The position numbers and the translations under genes are program-made. From contig OY968796.1 of assembly GCA_963695545.1 (NCBI GenBank), forward strand, positions 1,440,001-1,504,000: a DNA stretch of 64,000 nucleotides. The letters run 5' to 3'. Position 1 is the first letter of the stretch, and each line of letters begins with the position of its first letter. Under the pieces are notes generated by a model that was given only the letters and a program-made list of their open reading frames with translations, was not told the DNA's origin and ran no database searches. This DNA is from Terriglobia bacterium. GTDB lineage: Bacteria > Acidobacteriota > Terriglobia > Acidiferrales > UBA7541. Positions 4,617 through 48,090 of the stretch are shown piece by piece.

Positions 4617-5327
4617 ATGCAATTCGGCGTCGTAGTGTTTCCTGGATCAAACTGCGATCACGACGCTTGGTACGCTCTCGGCACGGTCCTCGGCCAGAAC
4701 GTTCGATTCCTGTGGCATCAATCTGAAAATCTCGAAGGGTGTGACGCCGTGATTCTTCCCGGCGGGTTTTCTTACGGCGATTATTTGCGCACCGGCGCGA
4801 TCGCGCGATTTTCGCCGGTGATGGGCGCGATCGAGAAATTCGCGCGGCGCGGCGGATTGGTGCTGGGCATTTGCAATGGATTTCAGATTTTGTGCGAAGC
4901 GGGATTGCTTCCGGGAGTGCTGATGCGCAACACAGGTCTGCGATTTGTGTGCAAGCAGGTTCACGTTCGCGTCGAAACCACAGATACGCCGTTCACGGCC
5001 GCCGCCGAGATGGGGCGAGCGCTGCGCATGCCGATCGCGCACGCGGAAGGAAGTTATTTTTGCGATCCGGAGACACTCGCTGAACTTGAACGCAACGCGC
5101 AGATCGTATTTCGCTACTGCACGCCTGATGGGCGCATTACGGCGGAGGCCAATCCGAACGGCTCGCTACAGAACATCGCAGGAATTTGCAGCCGCGAGCG
5201 CAACGTTATGGGATTGATGCCGCATCCGGAGCGCGCGGCGGAAGAAATTTTGGGATCGGCGGACGGCGCGGTGGTGTTGCGGTCGACCATCGCGTCGCTG
5301 GCGCGCGCGGGAGCCGTGTCGGCGTAA
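4617..5327 (+). CDS. purQ: FGAM synthase glutaminase subunit
   Basis: [41 protein letters not shown]. Confidence 0.97.
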
Positions 5328-33923: not shown

Positions 33924-33991
33924 GCAGACGCCGCCGCGGGCTGAGATGAGCTCGTGATGCGTATTGCGAGAGCGAGATCGCGGCGGGAGGG

Positions 33992-34055
33992 GGGTACACC
34001 CCCGGGTATGTTTCGCGTAAGCGCGGCAAGCACAGGGCTTGCAGGAAAAGAGTGA
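33992..34055 (-). repeat. Dispersed ~63-bp non-coding element, copy 1
   Basis: Reverse complement aligns to 53983-54044 with 6 substitutions and 2 single-base gaps. Confidence 0.85.
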
Positions 34056-34525
34056 GAAAGAGTGCGCAAGAGATTGAGCGCAATGGGTTTGCGAGCGTTT
34101 ATTTTCAATAAGATGCGCACTCCTTTGCATTTGGTTTGGAATCATTCGTTTACGGCGACACAATTGTGCGGGTAAGCGCGGTTCGGTCGCGATCAATCGA
34201 TGATATTTTGTAGACCAGGCCGGGCGGGCGACAGGGAGGCTCCGCCGTGCGTGCGCGGACTTGACCGCCAAGATTCGCACGGTTGAGCTGGGCTCGAACG
34301 GAAAAATCTTGAGCGGGCGAGCGGTTGGGAGGTGTGGTTCGAGGCTCATGCGTGATGGTAGCACGAAGGGCAACGCAATGTCAATATTATCTATGAGTTA
34401 TAATTCGAATGCGATGGGTGTGAGGGCATAGCGGAATGATTTTGCGTGAGATTTCCAGAGTCTTGGTCCTCCGTCTTGTAACGATTGCGATACGGGCGAG
34501 ACGACCCGCGACGGGCGAAACATTG

Positions 34526-34548
34526 AGAAAACGTCCCGTCTGTCCCCG
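34526..34548 (+). repeat. 23-bp direct repeat AGAAAACGTCCCGTCTGTCCCCG, copy 1
   Basis: Identical to 34871-34893. Confidence 0.9.
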
Positions 34549-34551
34549 ATG

Positions 34552-34854
34552 ATCCTGCCAGACATGTCCGCTGGACTTGTGAGACGCGTTCCAATACGAA
34601 GCATAGCGCCCATGGGTTTGTTTCAAGGCCAACGCGAGGGCTTGGGTCTTGCGCGGAACGACCACTAAATGCATGTGGTTGGACATCAGGCAGTAGCCCA
34701 GCAGCGATAAGTCGTGGAGTTGAACGTACTGGCGTAACAGCTCCAGGTAAACCGAGCGTTCGCCATCGGAAGCGAGAAGGAGTTGCCGCGCGTTACCGCG
34801 CTGCGTTACATGGTGCGGGACATTGGCGACTACGATACGAGCCAAGCGAGCCAT
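34552..34854 (-). pseudogene. Truncated Y1 (HUH) tyrosine transposase, second RAYT/IS200-like type
   Basis: MARLARIVVANVPHHVTQRGN...YCLMSNHMHL...SGHVWQ, then stops resembling the family at the 23-bp repeat; the catalytic Tyr region is missing. Confidence 0.85.
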
Positions 34855-34870
34855 CACCCGATAAAATACC

Positions 34871-34893
34871 AGAAAACGTCCCGTCTGTCCCCG
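34871..34893 (+). repeat. 23-bp direct repeat, copy 2
   Basis: Identical to 34526-34548; followed by partial echo TCCGTCCCCGG. Confidence 0.9.
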
Positions 34894-34940
34894 GGTTCCG
34901 TCCCCGGTTTTCGCGGCCTTCCATTCGCGGTCGAGAGGAT

Positions 34941-35351
34941 TCAATCCTTTTGATTCAAGAAGCGGCCGAGATATGCATTCAGTAGTGCATTCTCGATCAG
35001 GGTGGCGAAGAAAAACTCGATTAGCCCGACCTGTCTCAACCGCAGTAGGACCACGAATCCCAGGCCGAAGTGGAGAATCGAAAACAGCACCAACGGGCCC
35101 CAGAATCTGCGCGATCTCCAAAAGGGTTCGGAGTGGCGTATCGCATTGCCGAAAACCAGGGCGCTCATGATCCCGAACCCGAGCCACTTGAGCGGCAGTC
35201 CGGACGTTCGACCCAGCCTGCCTTGGTGGACTGCGTAAACCCCGCCAACGACGACTAGTAGAATACCAATCAGGCAGTAGAGCAGCAGGTCCCGAAGCCT
35301 CCGACGGACAGTGCCTGGATGCGGATTGTTCGCAGGTGCGTTCAATGGCAC
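34941..35351 (-). CDS. Small membrane protein (about 4 TM), candidate immunity protein
   Basis: Hydrophobic segments; start overlaps the stop of the fragment at 35342-35559. Confidence 0.6.
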   Translation of the reverse strand: MPLNAPANNPHPGTVRRRLRDLLLYCLIGILLVVVGGVYAVHQGRLGRTSGLPLKWLGFGIMSALVFGNAIRHSEPFWRSRRFWGPLVLFSILHFGLGFVVLLRLRQVGLIEFFFATLIENALLNAYLGRFLNQKD

Positions 35352-35559
35352 CCTCCGCTGGTTGCCGTCTCCCCTTCCTGGATGTCTGCCTGAAACAGGG
35401 CACCGTCGATATATCCGGCGGCCGTCTCGGCCGCGCTCTCCACAGCACTTCCGTTCTTGATATTGTTGAACGGTCTAGAATTGTTAGGGGCGATGAGTCC
35501 TGTCCCCCCTTCAACGTTGGGCCTTGACGCGGCGTACTTCATCGCGTTACCAGCCCTGA
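35342..35559 (-). pseudogene. Orphan C-terminal fragment, probable polymorphic-toxin tip
   Basis: Frame VRAGNAMKYAASRPNVEGGTGLI...SGGCH* begins exactly at the element end (35560) and is coupled to a small membrane gene; identity is inferred from context only. Confidence 0.45.
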
Positions 35560-36464
35560 CGGGCGGGTGGCGCGCCCTTCCGTGAGCATGTGCATTTTCG
35601 ATCTCCACGCGCGAATGATACCATTAGCGACCTTCACCTTCGAGTAACATCGCGTGTCAGTCGGGATGCGGTTTGCGCAGCCCGGGGTGGCCCATTCTTT
35701 GTCCGCCGCGGCGGACAAAGGGTGGGGATTTCGATTTCGGGGTCGCTTCTACGGGCCCTCGTCGATCCGGACGAGTCCTTCCACGCCCTTCGCGTAATAC
35801 GACCAGCTGCTCCACGGCCAATCCTTTGGATGACCCACCAGCTTGTTCTTCACCGGATTCATGTGCATGTATTCGAGCTTCTCGATTTTTTTCTTGTGAC
35901 TCCACACGTTGAAGTCGTGAAATCTGCGCTGCCAGAATTGGCGCGGCACGAGTTCGCCTTCGACGAATGCGAACGGCAGCTGCGTTTCCGGCGCGCGCTT
36001 CTTCCTCGCGCGCAGGCGGCGCGAAACTCTTTGCTTCAGCACTTGCATCACGGTGGAAGGCGTTCCTTTCGCCGGTTCGCTGATTAGCAGGTGAACGTGG
36101 TTGGGCATCACGACGTATCCGACGAGGAGAAATCCGTAGCGGTCGCGCACTTCCCCGAGAATTTTTATGAACACGTTTCTGGCACGCGCGGAGGCAAGCA
36201 ACGGCAACCGCCGGTAGCACGTGTAGGTGAGGAAATGCAGGTCTTGATTGCCGTAGTAGCGTTTGAGATTCCAGGGCATGAAGGCGAACCCACGGACCCA
36301 CCCTTTGTCCGCCGCGGCGGACAAAGGATGGGCCACCCCGGGCTGCGCAGACCGCAGCCCGATGGACGCGCGATGTTACTCCAAGGTGAAGATCGCTAGT
36401 GGTGTCATCCTCGCGTGAGGACTAAAAAACTACAGAAGCAAACAGAGGGTGCGCCACCCGCCCG
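35560..36464. mobile_element. RAYT-like element 1: ~165-bp inverted arms (35560-35726 type A; 36297-36464 type B) around a Y1 transposase
   Basis: Arms are reverse complements over most of their length; each holds the palindrome CTTTGTCCGCCGCGGCGGACAAAG and ends in GCGGGTGGCGC. Confidence 0.85.
35749..36279 (-). CDS. REP-associated tyrosine transposase (HUH Y1), copy 1
   Basis: HFLTYTC, YVVMPNHVHLL (HUH), FWQRRFHD, YMHMNPVK (catalytic Tyr), DWPWSS. Confidence 0.92.
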   Translation of the reverse strand: MPWNLKRYYGNQDLHFLTYTCYRRLPLLASARARNVFIKILGEVRDRYGFLLVGYVVMPNHVHLLISEPAKGTPSTVMQVLKQRVSRRLRARKKRAPETQLPFAFVEGELVPRQFWQRRFHDFNVWSHKKKIEKLEYMHMNPVKNKLVGHPKDWPWSSWSYYAKGVEGLVRIDEGP

Positions 36465-36515
36465 TGCGCCGAAGTTGTCCAGATTGGATTCTGTGTCCCG
36501 TTCTTTGCCGGTATA
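36462..36515 (-). pseudogene. RHS repeat-associated core fragment (N-terminal part)
   Basis: YTGKERDTESNLDNFGAR, cut at the element end where YY...GRF..PD would normally follow. Confidence 0.8.
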
Positions 36516-36850
36516 ACGTGATCCGCCACGATTTTCCAGCAACGCTCCGTCTATCCCTAGTGCGCTCGCGGAGTTAGACCACGCACTGCCCTGATGTGGT
36601 GCTACATTTTTCCTCGCGAACCCCAGACGCGAGTTTTCGCCTACACCCTCGAAAGCATCTAAAGGAAAAAACACACACGGATCGCTGCATGACCCACGGA
36701 ACACGTGTTCTTGAGCTGCTTCCATTGGCGGGTACCCGACTCCCTCCGCACGCTCCTGGGTCAAGCAAGACGCCGCCAGCACGGTTTCACGCGGCGGTCT
36801 AACCCTCCCCTACTGTTTGTCAGGCTCCGGCTTTGGGAGCTTTCGGGCCT

Positions 36851-37381
36851 TTACGTTGGCAACGGAAAAATCACGAGCCGATATCCGGCGAAGGGAAGGG
36901 GATGGCCCCATCCTCCCCATTTGCCGACGACCTTGCCCGACACATCATGGAGAAGGCCTAACGAGTCTTCGGTGGTTCCAGCCGGGACTGTGGCAACCTC
37001 CAGTTTTCCGGTTAGGGCTGCCTGAACCTGGTACATAGGGCATGCCTCGCAAGGGCGCTCTTTCGTTCCTTTGTAGACTGCGCTTGTGTACTTTTGAAAA
37101 CGCTTGAGATTCGCGTCGGGATGCTCCTTAAAATTCGGAGATTCCTCGCCAGCTTCTCCGTACACGAGCACAACTGCATCCCGACATCCCGGAATGTTGA
37201 GCAGCATGTCGTGCGGACCATCCACAACGCTTCCTTGGAGCGTGACAGTCTGGCCATTCGTGTATGACGAAAGCGCGCAAGCAGTCTGATTACCCTGTTG
37301 TGCGACGGCGGTTGCTGAACAGAACAAGAGAAAAAATATCGGGCACGCTAGTGCAGACACGGCAGCGCGCGCAGGCTTCAC
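36851..37381 (-). CDS. Secreted Cys-containing hypothetical protein
   Basis: Signal peptide (..ATAVA|QQ), CxxC (CEAC); GTGA overlap with the upstream gene. Confidence 0.65.
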   Translation of the reverse strand: MKPARAAVSALACPIFFLLFCSATAVAQQGNQTACALSSYTNGQTVTLQGSVVDGPHDMLLNIPGCRDAVVLVYGEAGEESPNFKEHPDANLKRFQKYTSAVYKGTKERPCEACPMYQVQAALTGKLEVATVPAGTTEDSLGLLHDVSGKVVGKWGGWGHPLPFAGYRLVIFPLPT

Positions 37382-37842
37382 TTCTTTCCTGCTGGCATAT
37401 CCACTGTACCGGGCCAGCGTAGGGCTTCCACTTCAACTGCCGAGGGGAGGTTGAGTATCACGCGCGGATTATTTTGGGATGGTTCTAGGTCCGTCACAAG
37501 TTTGTAGGTGTAGGTCACGGTGAACGTGGTTGGCGTGTGGGGCGAGAACTGCCACGTTCGGAGGTTCTCCTCAGCAAAATCAGCTAAGAGCTTATGGCCG
37601 TCCTCAACTTGTATGGAGACTACGTGGTGGCCATCCGTCGTGGCCTTAAGGTGCACTACCCCTTCAACATTTGCGAGGCGTGCTGTCGGAGGGTACAGAG
37701 GCACTTGGGCCGAAGTAACCATAGGTAGGGCCACGCGCACTTGCTGTGCGCCTATCGCCAAGCTTTCCAAAAGTAGAAGACTCGCCGCCCCGACTGCTCG
37801 CCAAAGAAAATTGCCTTTCATCAGATTTGCTCCTATGCCCAT
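37378..37842 (-). CDS. Small secreted TonB C-terminal-domain-like protein, in immunity position
   Basis: Signal peptide; PLYPPTARLANVEGVVHL..G....V....GH..L....EENLRTWQF pattern; no Pro-rich linker; TGATG overlap with the RHS toxin stop. Confidence 0.7.
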   Translation of the reverse strand: MGIGANLMKGNFLWRAVGAASLLLLESLAIGAQQVRVALPMVTSAQVPLYPPTARLANVEGVVHLKATTDGHHVVSIQVEDGHKLLADFAEENLRTWQFSPHTPTTFTVTYTYKLVTDLEPSQNNPRVILNLPSAVEVEALRWPGTVDMPAGKK

Positions 37843-38582
37843 CAGTTCGGCCAGGGATTGTGTGGCGTCGTCTCTGGATGAGTCGGTTGTCCGTTTTGGT
37901 CATGGAATCTCGTAACGAAATTGGTGATGTTCTTATCCACTTGCGCCCAACTTCCGTTCCAAAGAACGTAGTTCGTTCCGTCGTAACTCCGAGAAAACGA
38001 GGTCGCTCCAAGCGCGGACGCAGCGAAGATTGAAGTCTGGTATCCGCGATATTCGGTGGAGAAAGGGCTAAGGCTTGGCAAGGATCCGAGAGTGATGTAG
38101 TCGTTGACAGCCTGTGTTAGGAAATCCTCGACGTGCGTACCCTCGTGAGCCGCGTCTATCGCATACTCGCCCTGGCTGCTTATCTTGCTCGGATCGAAAG
38201 TGATAGTAGCTCCAAGCATGCCACTTTGACTGGCGCTGAAATCGGTTTGGGCGGCTGCATCCCCGCTCAGTGCGCCAAACGTGACGTTCACTCCGTTGTT
38301 GTCGCCTTGGGTTCCTAGCGCCGTCAGTGATGCTTCGAGCCTATCTTTTGCAGCGCCGTTCTTCATCTTGTCCACTTGCTTCTGTAAGTTGGACAGCCCA
38401 TTCTTCAAGTCCTTCGCGTGCTGATTGAACTGCTTGTTGCATTTCTTGTCGTCTGAGGCGCAGTTGTTCACCAGGTCGTAGAGTCCTGTTGGATCGATGA
38501 TGTTGAGCGGATTGTTTAGCGCATAGGCGTACCGATTCCACGTTTGAGGATTGCTAGGTCGTCCGCTGTTCAGCAACGGATC
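37842..38582 (-). pseudogene. Orphan RHS core end plus C-terminal toxin domain (HExxH metallopeptidase-like)
   Basis: DPLLNSGRPSNPQTWNRYAYALNNPLNIIDPTG core end, then about 210 aa with AAHEGTH and TEYRGY; begins at the element end. Confidence 0.85.
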
Positions 38583-39483
38583 GCGGGTGGCGCACCCTTT
38601 GTCTGCGTCTGTAGTTTTCAGCCGTCACGCGCGGATGATACCACTAGCGACCTTCACTGTGGAGTAACGTCGGACGTCCGTCGGGCCGCGGTGTGTGCAG
38701 CCCGGGGTGGCCCATTCCTTGTCCGCCGCGGCGGACAAAGGGTGGGGCTTTCGATTTCCGGGGTCGCTTCTACGGACTCTCGTCGATCCGGACGAGTCCT
38801 TCCACGCCCTTCGCGTAATACGACCAGCTGCTCCACGGCCAATCCTTTGGATGACCCACCAGCTTGTTCTTCACCGGATTCATGTGCATGTATTCGAGCT
38901 TCTCGATTTTTTTCTTGTGACTCCACACGTTGAAGTCGTGAAATCTGCGCTGCCAGAATTGCCGCGGCGCGAGTTCGCCTTCGACGAATGCGAGCTGGAG
39001 TTGCGTTTGCGGCGCGCGCCTGTTCCTCGCGCGCAGGCGGCGCGAGACTCTTTGCTTCAGCACTTGCATCACGGTGGAAGGCGTCCCTTTCGCCGGTTCG
39101 CTGATTAGCAGATGAACGTGGTTGGGCATCACGACGTATCCGACGAGGAGAAACCCGTAACGGTCGCGCACTTCTTCAAGAATCTCAACGAACACGTTTC
39201 TGGCGCGCGCCGAGGCAAGCAGCGGCAAGCGCCGGTAGCAGGTGTAGGTGAGGAAATGCAGGTCTTGGTTGCCGTAGTGGCGCTTGAGATTCCAGGGCAT
39301 GACGGCAAACCCACGGACCCACCCTTTGTCCGCCGCGGCGGACAAAGGATGGGCCACCCCGGGCTGCGCAGACCGCAGCCCGACGGACGCGCGATGTTAC
39401 TCCGAGCTGAAGGTTGCCAGTGAATCCATTCCCGCGTGGAGATCGAAAATGCGCACCCTCACGGAAGGGTGTGCCACCCGTCC
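38583..39483. mobile_element. RAYT-like element 2: inverted arms (38583-38746 type B; 39318-39483 type A) around a Y1 transposase
   Basis: Same arm architecture and palindrome as element 1. Confidence 0.85.
38770..39300 (-). CDS. REP-associated tyrosine transposase (HUH Y1), copy 2
   Basis: Same motifs as copy 1; 11 differences over 176 aa by manual comparison. Confidence 0.92.
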   Translation of the reverse strand: MPWNLKRHYGNQDLHFLTYTCYRRLPLLASARARNVFVEILEEVRDRYGFLLVGYVVMPNHVHLLISEPAKGTPSTVMQVLKQRVSRRLRARNRRAPQTQLQLAFVEGELAPRQFWQRRFHDFNVWSHKKKIEKLEYMHMNPVKNKLVGHPKDWPWSSWSYYAKGVEGLVRIDESP

Positions 39484-39611
39484 TAGGATTCACATATGCG
39501 CATTGGCGGCAAAAATGGATCGAGGGCGGAATGGTATGGAAACGCGTGAGCCTAAAGCCTCCGCCAAATTGGCACCCTGGAGACCAACTGCGGCATGTGC
39601 TGCCCGCATGA
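39480..39611 (+). pseudogene. C-terminal gene fragment cut by element 2
   Basis: VLGFTYAHWRQKWIEGGMVWKRVSLKPPPNWHPGDQLRHVLPA* starts at the arm end; resembles from memory the tail of small CPCC-like proteins found beside toxins. Confidence 0.4.
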
Positions 39612-39808
39612 TTCACCCTTCGGAGCCGGGCGGTGACGATTTTGAAACAGGATCGAAACAACGGCGAGTTCACCGTAGACGCCCACCACCTTTGGGCGTA
39701 TACGACAATCTCTGACGTGGACCGTGGCTTTGTGTGACCTTTCGAGGGGCTAGAGCATCTGAGATACTTCAGGCGCTCCGGTCAAGCGAGCAGACGGGAG
39801 TTGTTGAT

Positions 39809-40075
39809 GTGGATAAGCGGGATTGGGAAGCATATTTCGAGATTGCCCGGACTCCCGGGCGGCGCCGCCGTCCGCCCCGGCCGATCTGCCCGAGTGAGGC
39901 CAACCACATTCTTCCGGCCATCGGCTTCAGTCTATCTGAGCTTGACGACGCCGGGATTGACGTCGAACTCGCCGAACGTCTCGGCCTGCCCGTAGATGCC
40001 GGACGCATTGGAGCTTATGGTCCCAATGTCTCGAGCCTGCGCGAGTTTGCCAGGATGGCCCGCCGTCCCGGTTAA
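39809..40075 (+). CDS. Small protein resembling ribosomal protein eL13 (L13e)
   Basis: GFSLSELDDAGIDVELAERLGLPVDAGRIGAYGPNVSSLREF fits the L13e core pattern without gaps; GTG 39809 has GGGAG 8 nt upstream (track start 39734). Confidence 0.65.
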   Translation: MDKRDWEAYFEIARTPGRRRRPPRPICPSEANHILPAIGFSLSELDDAGIDVELAERLGLPVDAGRIGAYGPNVSSLREFARMARRPG

Positions 40076-42330: not shown

Positions 42331-43230
42331 GTGCCTCAAAACCTTTCCGCCTTGCGATCGAAACTCGAAGCGGCTCTGGCCGGTCGCGTCGCTGCGCCTT
42401 TTGCGGTTCGCGATCGCCAGCTTTTTCAGACGGTTTCCGCGGGCATCGCCGAAATCGACTTTCTGACCAGCGGTTTGCCGCGCGGAGGGCTCACGGAAAT
42501 TTATGGCCCGTTCTGCTCCGGCCGCACGAGTTTGCTGCTTTCGGCCTTGGCGTCCCGGACAAATACCGGCGAGGTCTGCGCTCTTGTGGATGGATGCGAT
42601 GCCTTCGATCCGCATTCGGCGCAAGCCGCCGGCGTGGAATTGAAAAAGCTGTTGTGGGTGCGTTGCCGGAATCTGGACCACGCCCTGCGCGCCACGGATT
42701 TGCTTTTGCAGGGCGGCGGCTTCAGCCTGATCGCCCTCGATCTGAGCGATATTTTTTGGAAAACCATCCGCAATGTGCCGCTGCATGTCTGGTTTCGTCT
42801 GCGGCGCGCGGTGGAAAACACGCCCACGATTCTGATTCTTCTGAATCGGGAGTCCCAGGCAAAAACGTGCGCCTCGCTGGTTCTGCGTCTCGAAGCCGAG
42901 CCAACCTGCCGGATCACCGTGCCGGAAATTTGCGATCCCCGTTTTTTTCAGCATTCGTGGACATGTTTGTTTGATGGATTTGAAATCCACGCGGAACGAA
43001 TCCGTTCTCGCGTGCAATCCGTCACGGACGCATATGGCGGCAATGTCGCCGCCCCGGTAATCGCGGACAGCAAGGCGTCAACGTTTAAAACCCGGGCCCT
43101 CTGGAGTTACTTCAGCCGCGATGCGCTCCGCGGCCCATTGAAGCAATGTGCTCCGCACAGCCCGGTGAAGCAATGCGCTCCGCACAGTCCATTGAAGCAA
43201 TGCGTTCCGCGCAGTCCGGTCGTGAGGTGA
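42331..43230 (+). CDS. imuA: ImuA / RecA-like translesion cassette protein
   Basis: SGLPRGGLTEIYG...SGRTSL (degenerate Walker A), ALVDG.DAFDP.SA..AGV.L..LLWVR, LIALDL; precedes imuB-dnaE2. Confidence 0.85.
   Translation: MPQNLSALRSKLEAALAGRVAAPFAVRDRQLFQTVSAGIAEIDFLTSGLPRGGLTEIYGPFCSGRTSLLLSALASRTNTGEVCALVDGCDAFDPHSAQAAGVELKKLLWVRCRNLDHALRATDLLLQGGGFSLIALDLSDIFWKTIRNVPLHVWFRLRRAVENTPTILILLNRESQAKTCASLVLRLEAEPTCRITVPEICDPRFFQHSWTCLFDGFEIHAERIRSRVQSVTDAYGGNVAAPVIADSKASTFKTRALWSYFSRDALRGPLKQCAPHSPVKQCAPHSPLKQCVPRSPVVR
43135..43215 (+). repeat. Three 27-bp tandem repeats inside the imuA 3' end
   Basis: ccattgaagcaatgtgctccgcacagc / ccggtgaagcaatgcgctccgcacagt / ccattgaagcaatgcgttccgcgcagt, encoding PLKQCAPHS, PVKQCAPHS, PLKQCVPRS. 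Confidence 0.9.
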
Positions 43231-43264
43231 GGATTGGGCAGGTTTCTTTCCCGATCGCGTTTTT

Positions 43265-44884
43265 ATGGCTTTTGCCGCCATTCACGTTCCCGACTTCATG
43301 CTGCAAGCCGTGGTGCGCGCCGAGCCGCATCTTCACGGCCGCGCCCTGGTTCTCATCGAAGGCGCTGCTCCCCTCGAGATCGTTGTGGCCGCCAGCGAAG
43401 CCGCCTTGCGCGCGGGAATTGAGCTCGGCATGGCGAAGTCTCAAGTGGAGCAGTTCTCCGTCATGGAAATTCGTCATCGTTCCTGCGCGCAATCGCGCGC
43501 GCAGGAAAAATCCGCGCACGCGGCCTTGCTCGATCTCGGATGGTCCTTTTCGCCGCGCCTTGAAGACGTTGCGCCGGATACCATCGTTCTCGATCTCGCG
43601 GGTCTGCAAGTTCTTTACAGTTCCAAGGAAAATATCGCGGAGCAATTGGCCGTGCGCGCCCGCGGTCTGGGTCTTGCGGCGAACGTCGCGATCGCGTCCG
43701 AGATTGAATCTTCCATCATCGCCGCGCGCAGTTTTTCGGGAATTACATTGATTCCCGCGAGCCAGGAAGCGAAGCGCTTGGGCTGTTTGCCGGTCGCGGC
43801 GCTTTCGCCGTCCGCGGAACTTCGCGAAATATTGGAACGCTGGGGAGTGCGCACCTGCGCGGCGCTGGCTGCGTTGCCCGTTCTCGATTTGTCGGAACGA
43901 TTGGGGCAGGAAGGTGTGCGCCTCCATGCGTTGGCTCGAGGTGAAAATGCGCGCGCGTTGATCCTTGCCGAGCCGGCCGCAACTTTCGAGGAGGAAATGG
44001 AACTCGATGACGCCGTGGAGGAACTCGAGCCGCTGGCGTTTATTCTCGGCCGGCTACTCGATCAACTTTGCGCCCGCTTGAATGCGCGTTCGCTCGCCGT
44101 GCAAGTGATTCGCCTGCGATTCGATCTCGAACGCTCCCCCGAAAAAAACATCCGGTCCCTGGAAGAAGACTCGCGCCAAAAACCAAACGCGGCCATTTAC
44201 GAAAAAACCGTGACGCTGCCAGTGCCAATGCGCGATTCCAAAATGCTTTTGCGATTGCTGCGCTTGAAGCTGCAAGCGGATCCGCCGCCGGCCGCGATTT
44301 GCAAAGCCGTGATTGCCGTCGATCCCGCCGGGCCGCGCTCGACACAAGGCGGATTATTTCTTGCCGGTTTTCCCGATCCCGAAAAGTGGGAGTTGATGAT
44401 CGCGCGTCTCGCAAATCTGGTGGGCGAAGCCAATGTCGGCTCGCCCGAGCTGATGGATACGCATCTTCAAGGTGAATTCCGGATGGACCGGTTCGCAACT
44501 TTTGCAAAAGAAGCGGGCCTTGCTCGAAACAGAAAAAGTGTCCCGGCGCAAGACCCCGTGACGGCGTTTCGTGTTTTTCGGCCGCCCTTCGCGGCCAAGG
44601 TCGAATTGCGCGAGGAGTGTCCCGTGCGCATTGTGTTTTGCGGCGTGCGCGCCGAAGTGATCGCCGCCTCCGGTCCGTGGCGCACATCGGGAAATTGGTG
44701 GGCGGAAAATGTTTGGCAGCACGACGAATGGGACATCGAGATTCGCTGTGATTGTGTTTCTGCTGACGATGTGCGCGGACGAAATTCAGCCGCGCGCTCC
44801 GAAACGCCTCCGCGCAATGGAATGTACCGCATTTATTTCGACGGCCTGCGCCGAAGCTGGTTTGTGCGCGGAGTCTACGATTGA
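43265..44884 (+). CDS. imuB: ImuB, inactive Y-family polymerase-like protein
   Basis: AALRAGIELGM, FSPRLE..PDTIVLD, WGVRTC, QGGLF clamp-like motif, ASGPWRTSGNWW, GVYD end. Confidence 0.88.
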   Translation: MAFAAIHVPDFMLQAVVRAEPHLHGRALVLIEGAAPLEIVVAASEAALRAGIELGMAKSQVEQFSVMEIRHRSCAQSRAQEKSAHAALLDLGWSFSPRLEDVAPDTIVLDLAGLQVLYSSKENIAEQLAVRARGLGLAANVAIASEIESSIIAARSFSGITLIPASQEAKRLGCLPVAALSPSAELREILERWGVRTCAALAALPVLDLSERLGQEGVRLHALARGENARALILAEPAATFEEEMELDDAVEELEPLAFILGRLLDQLCARLNARSLAVQVIRLRFDLERSPEKNIRSLEEDSRQKPNAAIYEKTVTLPVPMRDSKMLLRLLRLKLQADPPPAAICKAVIAVDPAGPRSTQGGLFLAGFPDPEKWELMIARLANLVGEANVGSPELMDTHLQGEFRMDRFATFAKEAGLARNRKSVPAQDPVTAFRVFRPPFAAKVELREECPVRIVFCGVRAEVIAASGPWRTSGNWWAENVWQHDEWDIEIRCDCVSADDVRGRNSAARSETPPRNGMYRIYFDGLRRSWFVRGVYD

Positions 44885-47800
44885 AGTACGTCGAATTGCA
44901 CGCGCGTTCCGCCTTCAGTTTTCTCGAAGGGGCCTCGCTGCCCGAAGCGCTGGCCGCGGAATGCGCCAAGCATGAAATGGGAGCCATGGCGCTGCTCGAT
45001 CGCGACGGCATGTATGGCGCGCCCCGATTTTATCTGGCCGCGACAAAACTTTCTCTGCGGGCGCATATCGGCGCGGAGGTCTCTGCGGCAAGCGGCTGGC
45101 GTTATCCGCTGCTGGTGGCTTCGCGCGCGGGATACCAAAACATTTGCCGCCTGATTACGCGCATGAAACTGCGCGCGCGAAAAAACGAAGGCCACGTAGA
45201 TGAAGAAGAGTTTCTCGAAAATTCCTCCGGCCTGATTTGCCTCACAGGCGGCGAAGAAGGGCCGCTGGCGCACGCGCTTAAACAAGAAGGAATCGCGGGC
45301 GGACTCGCCTGCGTGGCGCGACTCGCGGAACTTTTCGGCCGCGAAAATGTCTATGTCGAATTGCAGCGCCACTTTTCCCGCGAAGAAGAGGCGCGCAACC
45401 AGGCGGCTATCGAAATCGCGCAAACCGCGCGTCTGCCTCTTCTGGCCACGAACGGCGTTTGCCACGCGCTGCCGCACGAAAGAGAAGTGCTGGACGTTTT
45501 CACCTCTCTGCGTCATCACCGCACTCTCGCCGCCGCCGGACGCCTTCTTTCCCGCAACGCCGAGCGCCATTTGAAAGCGCCCGCGGAGATGGCCCGATTG
45601 TTTCGAGACATTCCCCAAGCCATCGCCAATACCGAAACTCTTTCCTCTCGCCTCGAATTCACTTTGAAAGACCTGGGATATCAATTCCCAAAATATCCGG
45701 TTCCGGATGGCGCGTCGGAAATGCAGTTTCTTCGCGAACGCACACGCGACGGATTGCTGCTGCGCTATGGTCCTGACGACGAAAAAGCGCGGCGGCAGAT
45801 GGAACGCGAGCTGGCTTTGATCGAAAAACTCGAGCTCGCCGGTTATTTCCTGATCGTTTGGGACATCGTTCGTTTTTGCCGCGAGAAAAACATTCTGGTG
45901 CAGGGGCGCGGCTCGGCCGCCAATAGCGCGGTCTGCTACGCGCTGGGGATCACCGCCGTCGATCCCGTCAAAATGGATTTGCTCTTCGAGCGATTTCTCT
46001 CCGAAGAGCGCGGCGAATGGCCCGATATCGATCTCGATCTTCCCAGTGGAGATCAGCGCGAGCGCGTCATTCAATACGTCTACGAGCGCTACGGAAAATT
46101 GGGCGCGGCGATGACCGCCAACGTCATCACCTACCGCAGCCGCTCGGCGGCGCGCGAAATCGGCAAAGTTCTCTCGTTCGAGTCCGACACGCTGGAGCGC
46201 CTGACGAAAGTGGTGGGAGCCTGGGGATATAAAGATGCCGACGAAACCCCCGATCGGCAGTTTCGCGAGGCGGGTTTTGATCTTCGGCATCCGCAAGTTC
46301 GCAAATTTTTCGATCTCTGGCGAATGATTCAGGATCTGCCGCGTCATCTCGGGCAGCACTCCGGCGGAATGGTGGTCTGCCAGGGCCAGCTCGATTCGGT
46401 CGTGCCGCTCGAACCGGCCACGATGCCCGGGCGCGTCGTGGTGCAATGGGACAAAGAAGATTGCGCCGACATGGGCATCGTGAAAGTGGACCTGCTCGGC
46501 TTGGGCATGATGTCCGTGCTGGAAGATTCCATAAAAATAATTCGCAACGATTACGGCGAGGAAGTGGATTTGGCGCACCTGCCGGCCGACGATCCCGCGG
46601 TTTACGACACGCTGCAAAAGGCGGACACCGTCGGCATGTTTCAGATCGAAAGCCGCGCGCAGATGTCTTGTTTGCCGCGCCTGCGCCCGAAATGTTTTTA
46701 CGACATCGTCGTGCAGGTGGCCATCATCCGCCCCGGTCCGATCGTCGGCAAGATGGTGAATCCATATTTGAAGCGCCGGCAGGGCCGCGAGCCGCCGGAT
46801 TGCCTACATCCATCGCTGGAAGCTGTGCTCGCTCGCACGCTGGGAGTGCCTCTGTTTCAAGAGCAGTTGTTGCGCATGGCCATGATCGCCGCCGGATTCA
46901 CGGGCGGCGAAGCCGAAGAATTGCGCCGCGCCATGGGCTTCAAGCGCTCGGAGCTGCGCATGAAATCCATCGAGGAAAAGTTGCGCGCGGGAATGACGCG
47001 CAATGGAATCTCGAGCGAAACACAGGACGCCATCGTGCAATCCATCGTGTCCTTCGCGCTCTATGGCTTTCCCGAATCGCACGCCGCGAGTTTCGCGTTG
47101 CTCGCCTACGCCAGCGCTTATTTGAAGTGTCATTATCTCGCGGCATTTACGGCCGCGCTGCTCAATAACCAGCCGATGGGCTTTTACAGTCCCGCGGTTC
47201 TTGTAAAAGATGCGCAGCGCCACGGCCTGCGCGTCAAACCGGTCGATGTGACTTGCTCGGATTGGAACTGCACACTCGAGTGCGATCGAGAGAATTTTGC
47301 CGTGCGCCTCGGCCTGCGATACGTTAAAGGCTTGTCTGCCGCCGTGGGCGCCGAAATCGCCTGCCAGCGCGTGATTCGCGCATTCACAACCATCGACGAT
47401 TTGAAGCTGCGCGTCCCTGCGATATCGAAATCCGAACTCACGGCGCTGGCGGAAGTCGGCGCTCTGAATTTCATCGCCGGCCACACAGCGTTTCATCGCC
47501 GCGACGCCTTGTGGCAAGTCGAACGCGCCGCGCGCCGTGCCGGCCCGTTGCTCGAAACGTTGGAAGAAACGCGAGAGCCGGAAAAAGAAAGTGATTCGAT
47601 TGTTTTCCCCTCGATTTCTCCCGCAATTTCTCCGGCAATTTCCTCCGCTGCGGCAGCCTCGCCCTTATCGCCCATGACTTCGGATGAAAGATTGATCGCC
47701 GATTATCGTGGCACGGGCCTCACCGTCGGCCCTCATCCCATGGCCTACCGCCGCGCGCAAATCAAAGCGCAGGGCATTCGCGCGGCGTGCGAGCTTCGCG

Positions 47801-48090
47801 ATCTTGCCGATGGCGTCCGAGTGCGCATCGCCGGAGCTGTGATCGCGCGTCAACGCCCCGGCACGGCGAAAGGCTTTGTGTTTTTGAGCCTCGAAGACGA
47901 AACCGGCATCGCCAACGCCATCCTCACGCCGCAAGTCTTCCGTGAAAATCGCTTAGTGGTCGTCGAGCAGCAATTTCTGGTCATCGAAGGCCAGTTGCAA
48001 AATCAAGAGGGCGCGATTTCGGTGAAGGCCGAATCGGTCTGGCCGCTCTCCATCACGCGCGTGGACGCCCAGTCGCACGATTTTCATTGA
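44881..48090 (+). CDS. dnaE2: Error-prone DNA polymerase DnaE2 (ImuC)
   Basis: YVELHARSAFSFLEGAS, GRGSAANS, PDIDLD, PRHLGQHSGG, YGFPESHA, RQRPGTAKG, C-terminal SHDFH. Confidence 0.96.
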   Translation: MKYVELHARSAFSFLEGASLPEALAAECAKHEMGAMALLDRDGMYGAPRFYLAATKLSLRAHIGAEVSAASGWRYPLLVASRAGYQNICRLITRMKLRARKNEGHVDEEEFLENSSGLICLTGGEEGPLAHALKQEGIAGGLACVARLAELFGRENVYVELQRHFSREEEARNQAAIEIAQTARLPLLATNGVCHALPHEREVLDVFTSLRHHRTLAAAGRLLSRNAERHLKAPAEMARLFRDIPQAIANTETLSSRLEFTLKDLGYQFPKYPVPDGASEMQFLRERTRDGLLLRYGPDDEKARRQMERELALIEKLELAGYFLIVWDIVRFCREKNILVQGRGSAANSAVCYALGITAVDPVKMDLLFERFLSEERGEWPDIDLDLPSGDQRERVIQYVYERYGKLGAAMTANVITYRSRSAAREIGKVLSFESDTLERLTKVVGAWGYKDADETPDRQFREAGFDLRHPQVRKFFDLWRMIQDLPRHLGQHSGGMVVCQGQLDSVVPLEPATMPGRVVVQWDKEDCADMGIVKVDLLGLGMMSVLEDSIKIIRNDYGEEVDLAHLPADDPAVYDTLQKADTVGMFQIESRAQMSCLPRLRPKCFYDIVVQVAIIRPGPIVGKMVNPYLKRRQGREPPDCLHPSLEAVLARTLGVPLFQEQLLRMAMIAAGFTGGEAEELRRAMGFKRSELRMKSIEEKLRAGMTRNGISSETQDAIVQSIVSFALYGFPESHAASFALLAYASAYLKCHYLAAFTAALLNNQPMGFYSPAVLVKDAQRHGLRVKPVDVTCSDWNCTLECDRENFAVRLGLRYVKGLSAAVGAEIACQRVIRAFTTIDDLKLRVPAISKSELTALAEVGALNFIAGHTAFHRRDALWQVERAARRAGPLLETLEETREPEKESDSIVFPSISPAISPAISSAAAASPLSPMTSDERLIADYRGTGLTVGPHPMAYRRAQIKAQGIRAACELRDLADGVRVRIAGAVIARQRPGTAKGFVFLSLEDETGIANAILTPQVFRENRLVVVEQQFLVIEGQLQNQEGAISVKAESVWPLSITRVDAQSHDFH

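Follow-up and report, generated by a model that had tools for sequence, protein, structure and literature searches.

The window analysed in this study is a stretch of 64,000 nucleotides from a Terriglobia bacterium of the phylum Acidobacteriota (assembly GCA_963695545.1, contig OY968796.1, positions 1,440,001 to 1,504,000), and forms part of a 4.16-Mb genome assembled as one contig. Between thiI and the conserved genes that precede tRNA-Asn, the window contains a variable island (33935..39628; 57% GC vs 63% in the left backbone), in which two transposase genes of the RAYT/TnpA-REP family, each enclosed by long inverted arms, are interspersed with modules of RHS type. An earlier reading of the sequence alone (the original prediction) had regarded these elements as a candidate system for shuffling RHS toxin-immunity cassettes and proposed a comparison of the thiI to tRNA-Asn locus across relatives. 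In this comparison, the 5.7-kb island was missing at the same site in four congeners (G053, G055, G052, and G051), and the fifth (G054) carried an unrelated 3.3-kb insert there. An Rfam scan of the island gave no structured-RNA match.

The two RAYT genes (gene 1, 35749..36279; gene 2, 38770..39300; both on the minus strand) encode proteins of 176 aa that are 94% identical to each other. Both proteins scored above the family threshold of NF047646 (109 and 112 bits; cut-off 80), and the translation contains the HUH motif (H61-V-H63) together with the catalytic motif Y-x3-NP (Y137-MHM-NP), the combination that defines RAYT/TnpA-REP proteins (Quentin et al. 2018, PMC6006769). The window transposase resembles TnpA-REP of E. 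coli (4ER8), and Y1_Tnp was the only domain found in its 176 aa by Pfam. An assignment to TnpA of IS200/IS605 was rejected, with only 45 and 47 bits for NF033573 (cut-off 55) and the motif Y-x3-NP, not Y-x3-Q.

Each RAYT gene lies between two mutually inverted arms of about 166 nt that are 79-87% complementary. From the outside to the inside, an arm consists of the terminus GGCGGGTGGC, a spacer, and a repetitive extragenic palindrome (REP) made up of a GTGG foot and a 16-bp hairpin, and the REP was present in all four arms of the window. Element 1 is bounded by its 3' arm A1 (35561..35726, plus strand; GTGG foot at 35687-35690 and hairpin at 35691-35726) and its 5' arm A2 (36297..36463, minus strand), and element 2 by its 3' arm A3 (38583..38746, plus strand; GTGG-hairpin at 38707-38746) and its 5' arm A4 (39318..39483, minus strand). 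The predicted pair of HUH-Y1 genes in inverted arms was thus confirmed. The arms had also been treated as a single kind of repeat; they are indeed inverted copies, but an outer type (A1 and A4) differs from an inner type (A2 and A3), as the outer 50 nt are 88% alike in A1/A4, 78% in A2/A3, and 56-66% in the cross pairs. The whole genome contained three full copies of this RAYT family, 83-94% identical, and about 17 arm copies. A domesticated RAYT (single copy, fixed site, many REPs) was rejected, given three copies, about 17 arms, and a site empty of the island in all five congeners.

The ends of both elements run into remnants of other genes. At 35560, arm A1 cuts an orphan RHS toxin tip, of which the final 72 codons remain (35342..35560, minus strand); its homologues are 43-55% identical, and an RHS core lies upstream of 8 of the 19 non-self homologues. 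Coupled to this tip is a small hydrophobic gene of 136 aa (34941..35351, minus strand), a putative immunity gene by its position, which received no name from Pfam and has a 39% homologue directly outward of a 5' arm in locus L197. At 36464, a stub of an RHS core of about 17 codons (TGKERD..FGAR; 36464..36514, minus strand) reads into arm A2, and no conserved site was found upstream of the stub among the loci compared. At 38583, arm A3 cuts an RHS core end (DPLL..NPQTWNRYAY) that continues into a complete tip (37842..38582, minus strand). These 246 aa match, over the whole query, the C-terminus of a 1705-aa RHS protein with 76% identity (best of 185 matches), and the HExxH motif HEGTH suggests that the tip may have a metallopeptidase-like activity. 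It is followed by a 154-aa gene with weak TonB_C similarity below the cut-off (37378..37842, minus strand), a putative immunity gene of this tip, and by an unnamed 176-aa gene with a predicted signal peptide (36851..37381, minus strand), the second gene of the central cassette. The two inner ends, at A2 and A3, cut the same core with a spacing of 12 codons (12 residues in 97 of 98 homologues).

The fourth end, at 39483, belongs to arm A4, which cuts a small gene down to a tail of 41 codons (39486..39611, plus strand). The gene is of a kind found behind an RHS tip, as its single homologue in 200 other genomes of the order lies directly behind such a tip (L245; 36% over 36 aa); a further homology search with the 41 aa gave no match. 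The original prediction had all four ends cutting toxin- or immunity-type genes. This holds for the first three ends, and at 39483 the truncated small gene is present, but its link to toxin or immunity genes, drawn through one homologue, is weak, and this end is the weakest of the four. A small gene coupled downstream of the tip at the window modules fits an orphan RHS tip-immunity array. The window modules are ordinary orphan RHS tip-immunity pairs, the tips being putative toxins and the small genes putative immunity genes.

All four junctions were crossed by single contigs, with 0-3 differences, in three or four of four public runs, which come from one study and perhaps include the source sample. 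A run of a second study crossed the junction at 35560 with 0 differences, and in a third study, from another habitat, one contig carried the 246-aa tip and the 154-aa gene (96% identity), and the match did not extend beyond the arm end at 38583. An assembly artefact at the repeats might be suspected from the two elements, which are direct repeats and 96% alike across 300 nt, and from the whole island, which no contig spanned. However, independent short-read contigs bridge each junction and junctions of this kind are found in many genomes, so that such an artefact is extremely improbable. Two observations concern the letters of the window itself. Contigs of two runs differ from it at 36515 and 36828-36829, which would represent strain differences or assembly errors, and an extra G at 39810 in two runs indicates that the window may hold a one-base error there. 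The latter position falls in an open reading frame (ORF; 39734-40075) that is conserved in congeners and has weak similarity to ribosomal protein L13e (NF008914, 38 bits; cut-off 96).

The RHS association extends to the relatives of the window RAYTs, whose closest loci are mostly labelled Acidobacteriota (72 of 75). An RHS core was found within 5 kb in 21 of 75 related genome loci (0.58 expected) and in 10 of 80 metagenome loci (0.23 expected), with expectations derived from 174 cores in 220 Mb (50 genomes). In a comparison across these 50 genomes, made with the best 150 of 299 RAYT, 267 IS110, and 587 integrase matches and with 150 of the 174 cores, 23 RAYTs lay within 5 kb of a core (24-fold over expectation), compared with 7 IS110 (8-fold) and 8 integrases (10-fold; the set includes housekeeping Xer genes). 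Among the best 150 RAYTs, those with a long alignment span, taken as a proxy for the window lineage, accounted for nearly all of these cases (22 of 89 vs 1 of 61 other RAYTs; p 5e-5). The members linked to RHS genes are scattered over the entire tree of the clade. These results show that the RHS association of the window RAYT lineage is real, strong, and lineage-specific, and goes beyond a general sink for mobile DNA.

The arm terminus is conserved throughout the clade. Collecting the arm ends, as the original prediction had suggested, yielded 191 distinct ends, of which 26 had an RHS body within 300 nt and 22 abutted it (within 15 nt), compared with matches to RHS in 2 of 1500 random windows of the own genome. 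The expected enrichment was therefore recovered, although 169 of the 191 ends do not abut RHS body. The earlier reading had also named what would speak against it, namely ends falling at random relative to RHS genes or chimeric junctions; the enrichment and the bridging contigs exclude both. An open tail followed by a small hydrophobic gene was found outward of 27 of 70 5' ends, 5 of 49 3' ends, and 6 of 63 solo ends, compared with 38 of 600 random sites. Pfam named 2 of 53 of these tails and small genes over its cut-off (DUF7674 and SAA). In locus L026 (4388-4849), an RHS tip outward of a 5' arm has a serum-amyloid-A-like domain (PF00277, 76 bits).

Other mobile genes were observed at these loci. 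In L013 (about 4670-4970) and on both RAYT sides in L016, the REP hairpin of the arms is broken by an insert that carries a gene, and IS110 matches are located there; IS110 thus appears to target this REP, which would inflate the IS110 control near RHS genes. Among the best 150 integrase matches, tyrosine integrases were found 0.9-1.3 kb from RHS cores six times (G031:C7 965000-1013000, G050:C10 190000-201000, and G049:C4), making an integrase-linked second RHS array system a candidate.

The genome of the window contains two RHS-core sites in its 4.16 Mb, and all three full elements of the window RAYT family lie in them. The third element (1198716-1199645 of this genome, G000) is directly flanked by a tip-like tail and a small gene, and the only other RHS core is 7 kb away. 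The tip beside it gave no match in one search, and its single homologue in 300 genomes is followed by a gene that resembles, by eye, its own neighbour; with homology so sparse, the tail is at most a candidate RHS tip. Compared with the window copies, the third RAYT gene (G000:C1 1198899-1199447, L001) contains an insert near its 3' end that keeps the reading frame. The other RHS gene (G000:C1 1206356-1211328, L001) is full-length, is split by an element that looks IS3-like by eye, and is followed by two similar small membrane genes. Eleven further solo arms lie away from RHS genes, and RHS-type modules are touched by 5 of the 17 arm ends, not by the other 12. Two solo arms (G000:C1 115572 and 269042) adjoin apparent tRNA gene ends. 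Two RAYTs of other lineages in this genome are located away from RHS cores. A replication-strand bias was considered and rejected, as elements 1 and 2 lie on the opposite strand of one replichore from element 3 (judged from a noisy GC skew and three elements).

At the 22 ends that cut RHS genes, breakpoints lie 33-433 codons before the core end, and the RHS gene reads away from the element in 13 cases and into it in 9. The break was G^C, with the G kept, in 14 of 19 alignments with an intact copy of the flank, and no longer target motif was found among the 19 empty sites. Several intact flank copies come from the locus or genome of the end itself, and a neighbouring RAYT gene is cut by one of the ends. 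A contiguous empty site, sought as a sign of clean insertion or target duplication, was found for none of 50 end pairs mapped, few close relatives being available. Strand transfer with two-base specificity has been demonstrated in vitro for other TnpA-REP proteins (PMC8266576), and the junction data fit a one-ended, local strand transfer by a HUH enzyme of such specificity.

The long arms contain a further conserved feature, the motif TGnTAnnnT, located 50-68 nt inward of the terminus on the strand directed away from the transposase. It was present on the outward strand of 46 of 84 long arms and on the inward strand of 2 of 84, and in none of 123 short arms (background, 0.5%). Its variable positions agree with the extended -10 consensus of sigma-70. 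Upstream of host genes, the motif is likewise enriched (160 sense vs 57 antisense; 1398 ORFs). In the window, it is intact as TGGTATCAT in arm A1 (35615..35623, minus strand), where it faces the 72-codon tip and the putative immunity gene, and in arm A3 (38635..38643, minus strand), where it faces the 246-aa tip and the two downstream genes; both copies are putative promoters. The motif is degenerate in A2 (TGGTGTCAT, 36400-36408) and A4 (39421-39429), which face no tip-immunity pair. The 3' arm of the third element likewise has an intact motif facing the tip-like tail and small gene.

Retention of the motif follows the orientation of the neighbouring gene. Six of the 17 arms of this genome keep it, of which five face outward-reading genes and A1, scored as ambiguous, faces the tip; the other 11 have lost it, of which 10 face inward-reading genes and A4 is ambiguous (p 0.001). 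Three of the six motif-keeping arms are solo arms before non-RHS genes. In L002 (6467-9420; G000 1710467, 1711188, and 1713417), three solo arms of the same direction each have an intact outward motif before a non-RHS gene, one of these genes starting at the arm terminus. Across the clade, the flanking gene was called as outward-reading at 51 of the 62 5' ends that were scored, compared with 17 of the 45 scored 3' ends, by a strand caller that assigned 319 of 347 held-out genes correctly. In 18 of 21 loci, the RHS core and the RAYT run antiparallel; the window lineage has long arms on both sides, is parallel to its modules, and carries the intact motif on the 3' arms instead. Both the outward motif and the orientation bias go beyond the original prediction. 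These results indicate that the long arm is likely a portable promoter that faces outward and serves orphaned tip and immunity genes.

Taken together, these findings are best explained by a mobile RAYT (HUH-Y1) clade that is concentrated in the RHS arrays of Acidobacteria and remodels them by one-ended G^C joins, with a long-arm branch that likely supplies a promoter to orphan modules, an explanation that we hold with evenly balanced confidence. It starts from the observed anatomy, terminus, G^C rule, breakpoint scatter, enrichment, orientation bias, and motif conservation, to which we add a proposed mechanism. In this mechanism, the transposase would bind the GTGG-hairpin of single-stranded DNA and link the ends singly, each to a G^C in the vicinity. 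Such one-ended joins would produce deletions, duplications, and tandem element-cassette-element arrays, not clean insertions. Where an insertion takes away the delivery part of an RHS gene and maintains transcription of the immunity gene, it might be tolerated or favoured. The elements would then travel with RHS modules, which may be exchanged by homologous recombination at the core.

Several points weigh against this explanation. Three quarters of the lineage genes among the best 150 matches (67 of 89, 75%) lie more than 5 kb from a core, IS110 and integrases are also enriched at RHS loci in the corresponding sets, and the lineage was delimited by alignment span, not by a tree. As related genomes are not independent samples, the p-values overstate the significance. 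So few of the tails and small genes are named by Pfam that the immunity role is assigned by position. No good candidate for a -35 box was found. Short-arm members are found near RHS genes without the motif (6 of 22 within 5 kb) and show an outward bias (17 of 23 scored), so the promoter cannot be the entire cause of the RHS association.

Some of these points would suit a purely selfish element, an IS-like parasite that accumulates in RHS arrays, which are dispensable and often transferred, and is carried along with them, its motif serving the element itself (e.g., across a circle junction) with no effect on the host. The enrichment of IS110 and integrases near RHS cores and the RHS link of the motif-less short-arm members agree with it, as do the destruction of RHS genes by ends in both directions, the 12 of 17 ends of this genome that lie away from RHS modules, and ends that cut even neighbouring RAYT copies. 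However, the sister RAYTs of these genomes show no enrichment (1 of 61 among the best 150), and a motif that is kept where a gene reads outward and lost elsewhere is not predicted by purely selfish use; we regard the selfish reading as somewhat unlikely, though to be taken seriously. The original prediction had the elements target, recombine, or move RHS cassettes. Of this, the association stands, and movement is suggested by the layout of the window, but aiming at the core does not stand: breakpoints scattered over 33-433 codons refute core-specific targeting, and the scatter together with the G^C-only rule argues against a fixed swap site. In favour of a site-specific shufflon, with tips swapped at an RHS core that the enzyme recognises, both inner window ends lie within the core and several related ends in the last 100 codons of the core region; such a shufflon is very improbable in view of breakpoints spread across 400 codons, a shared target of G^C only, and no restored in-frame RHS fusion observed.

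The nested layout of the window raises the further idea of a cassette carrier, in which the element and the adjoining tip-immunity DNA are released as a circle that moves modules like a translocatable unit and recombines with a resident copy or an RHS core at another site or in another cell. The trait of such units, cargo between direct repeats of the element, was found in the window and in five tandem arrays with tip-immunity cassettes between elements (L103, L105, L225, L226, and L227). A circle of one element and the central cassette that entered a resident element by recombination would give exactly the nested arm layout described above, with outer arms matching outer and inner arms matching inner, and inner cuts merely 12 codons apart in one core. 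L105 has the same layout, with elements 99.5% identical and inner ends that cut 144 and 92 codons ahead of the core end, and the central module recurs at 96% identity on the contig from another habitat. However, two insertions into successive array modules yield the same layout, the window and L105 are the only two examples, the arms of the third element are unmatched, and no circle junction was seen in contigs, which drop rare forms. The three RAYT genes are also mosaics that show no single crossover, and a single crossover between elements 1 and 2 could not be resolved from them. A carrier of this kind is, in our view, distinctly unlikely. That the central toxin-immunity cassette itself arrived as a circle, as the paired arm types might suggest, is doubtful. 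Equally speculative is a broader role of the RAYT clade as an editor and carrier of acidobacterial RHS arrays, whose ends would excise modules as single-stranded circles, deliver them into elements or cores, and supply a promoter, making it a HUH-based counterpart of the integron that deals in immunity to interbacterial toxins.

The explanation by one-ended joins and promoter supply ties one RAYT lineage to one class of host locus and thereby gives the enzyme family a testable role, the use of RAYTs to their hosts being described as an open question (10.1101/2024.07.17.603846). If it is true, the elements would be a source of ends and of expression for orphan toxin-immunity modules in a highly abundant soil phylum, and these RAYTs would act as mobile elements, in contrast to those studied to date, which are inherited and single-copy.

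Other features of the window lie beside these elements. A fragment of a second RAYT lineage (34527-34893; coding remnant at about 34549-34860, minus strand) is enclosed by repeats ending in GAAAACGTCCCGTCTGTCCCC, and a similar end was found beside the RAYT of L013. Next to it, 33936-34477 is a dispersed non-coding repeat with 45 matches in the genome and no Rfam match, whose longest copies lie near arm loci (1200735, 1709298, 2955812, 3537848, and 2027090). Outside the island, three genes (42331-48090) resemble by eye what is presumably an imuA-imuB-dnaE2 mutagenesis cassette.

Among known systems, the TIRtrons with their TIRYT transposases (Di Nocera et al. 2013, PMC3733652) are like the window elements in having a Y1 transposase between long terminal inverted repeats (TIRs). 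The accessible sections of that paper describe a sharply defined group in Acidobacteria (Koribacter, Terriglobus, Acidobacterium, and Granulicella) and TIR families dispersed as solo copies, and this group may include members of the window clade. The termini differ (GGCGGGTGGC in the window vs GGGGWSAS in TIRtrons), the window arms hold a true GTGG-foot REP, and the main TIRYT group (subclass 2.1) has a C-terminal HTH, whereas the window protein has Y1_Tnp only. The same sections contain no target rule, promoter, RHS link, or toxin link. REPtrons (PMC6006769; Corneloup et al. 2021, PMC8266576; Bertels et al. 2017, PMC5581495) share with the window the HUH and Y-x3-NP motifs, a GT[AG]G foot 5' of a hairpin, and cut specificity at the dinucleotide level. 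Unlike REPtrons, the window clade is mobile, not domesticated, as indicated by several copies, tandem arrays, and absence at the syntenic site in congeners; it also has few REP copies and a G^C junction, compared with C|T in REPtrons. The Marinomonas enzyme with a GTGG foot cuts at CC or CA according to the accessible text, which fits the end of the window element on the outward strand (C|C), not the target.

The modules themselves are like the orphan rhs-CT/rhsI modules described previously (Poole et al. 2011, PMC3150448; Starsta et al. 2020, PMC7043789; Zhang et al. 2012, PMC3482391), which have a core fragment, a variable tip, and a small downstream gene without a delivery part. According to the accessible sections of these papers, the tips of orphan modules match full-length RHS proteins elsewhere, and internal promoters can transcribe the modules. 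The window modules differ from them in that transposon termini define where they end and the element itself bears the candidate promoter; the word transposase has no mention in the accessible text of PMC3150448 and a single one in that of PMC3482391. In the literature searched, mostly non-subscription papers, neither a RAYT-RHS link nor a promoter in RAYT arms was found reported. Insertion sequences with outward promoters are known to relieve polarity and to generate adjacent deletions, IS26 forms translocatable units in which cargo lies between direct repeats of the element, and the H-repeat insertion sequence resides in the rhs loci of E. coli. All of these use DDE transposases, whereas the elements of the window combine a single-strand HUH enzyme with REP hairpins.

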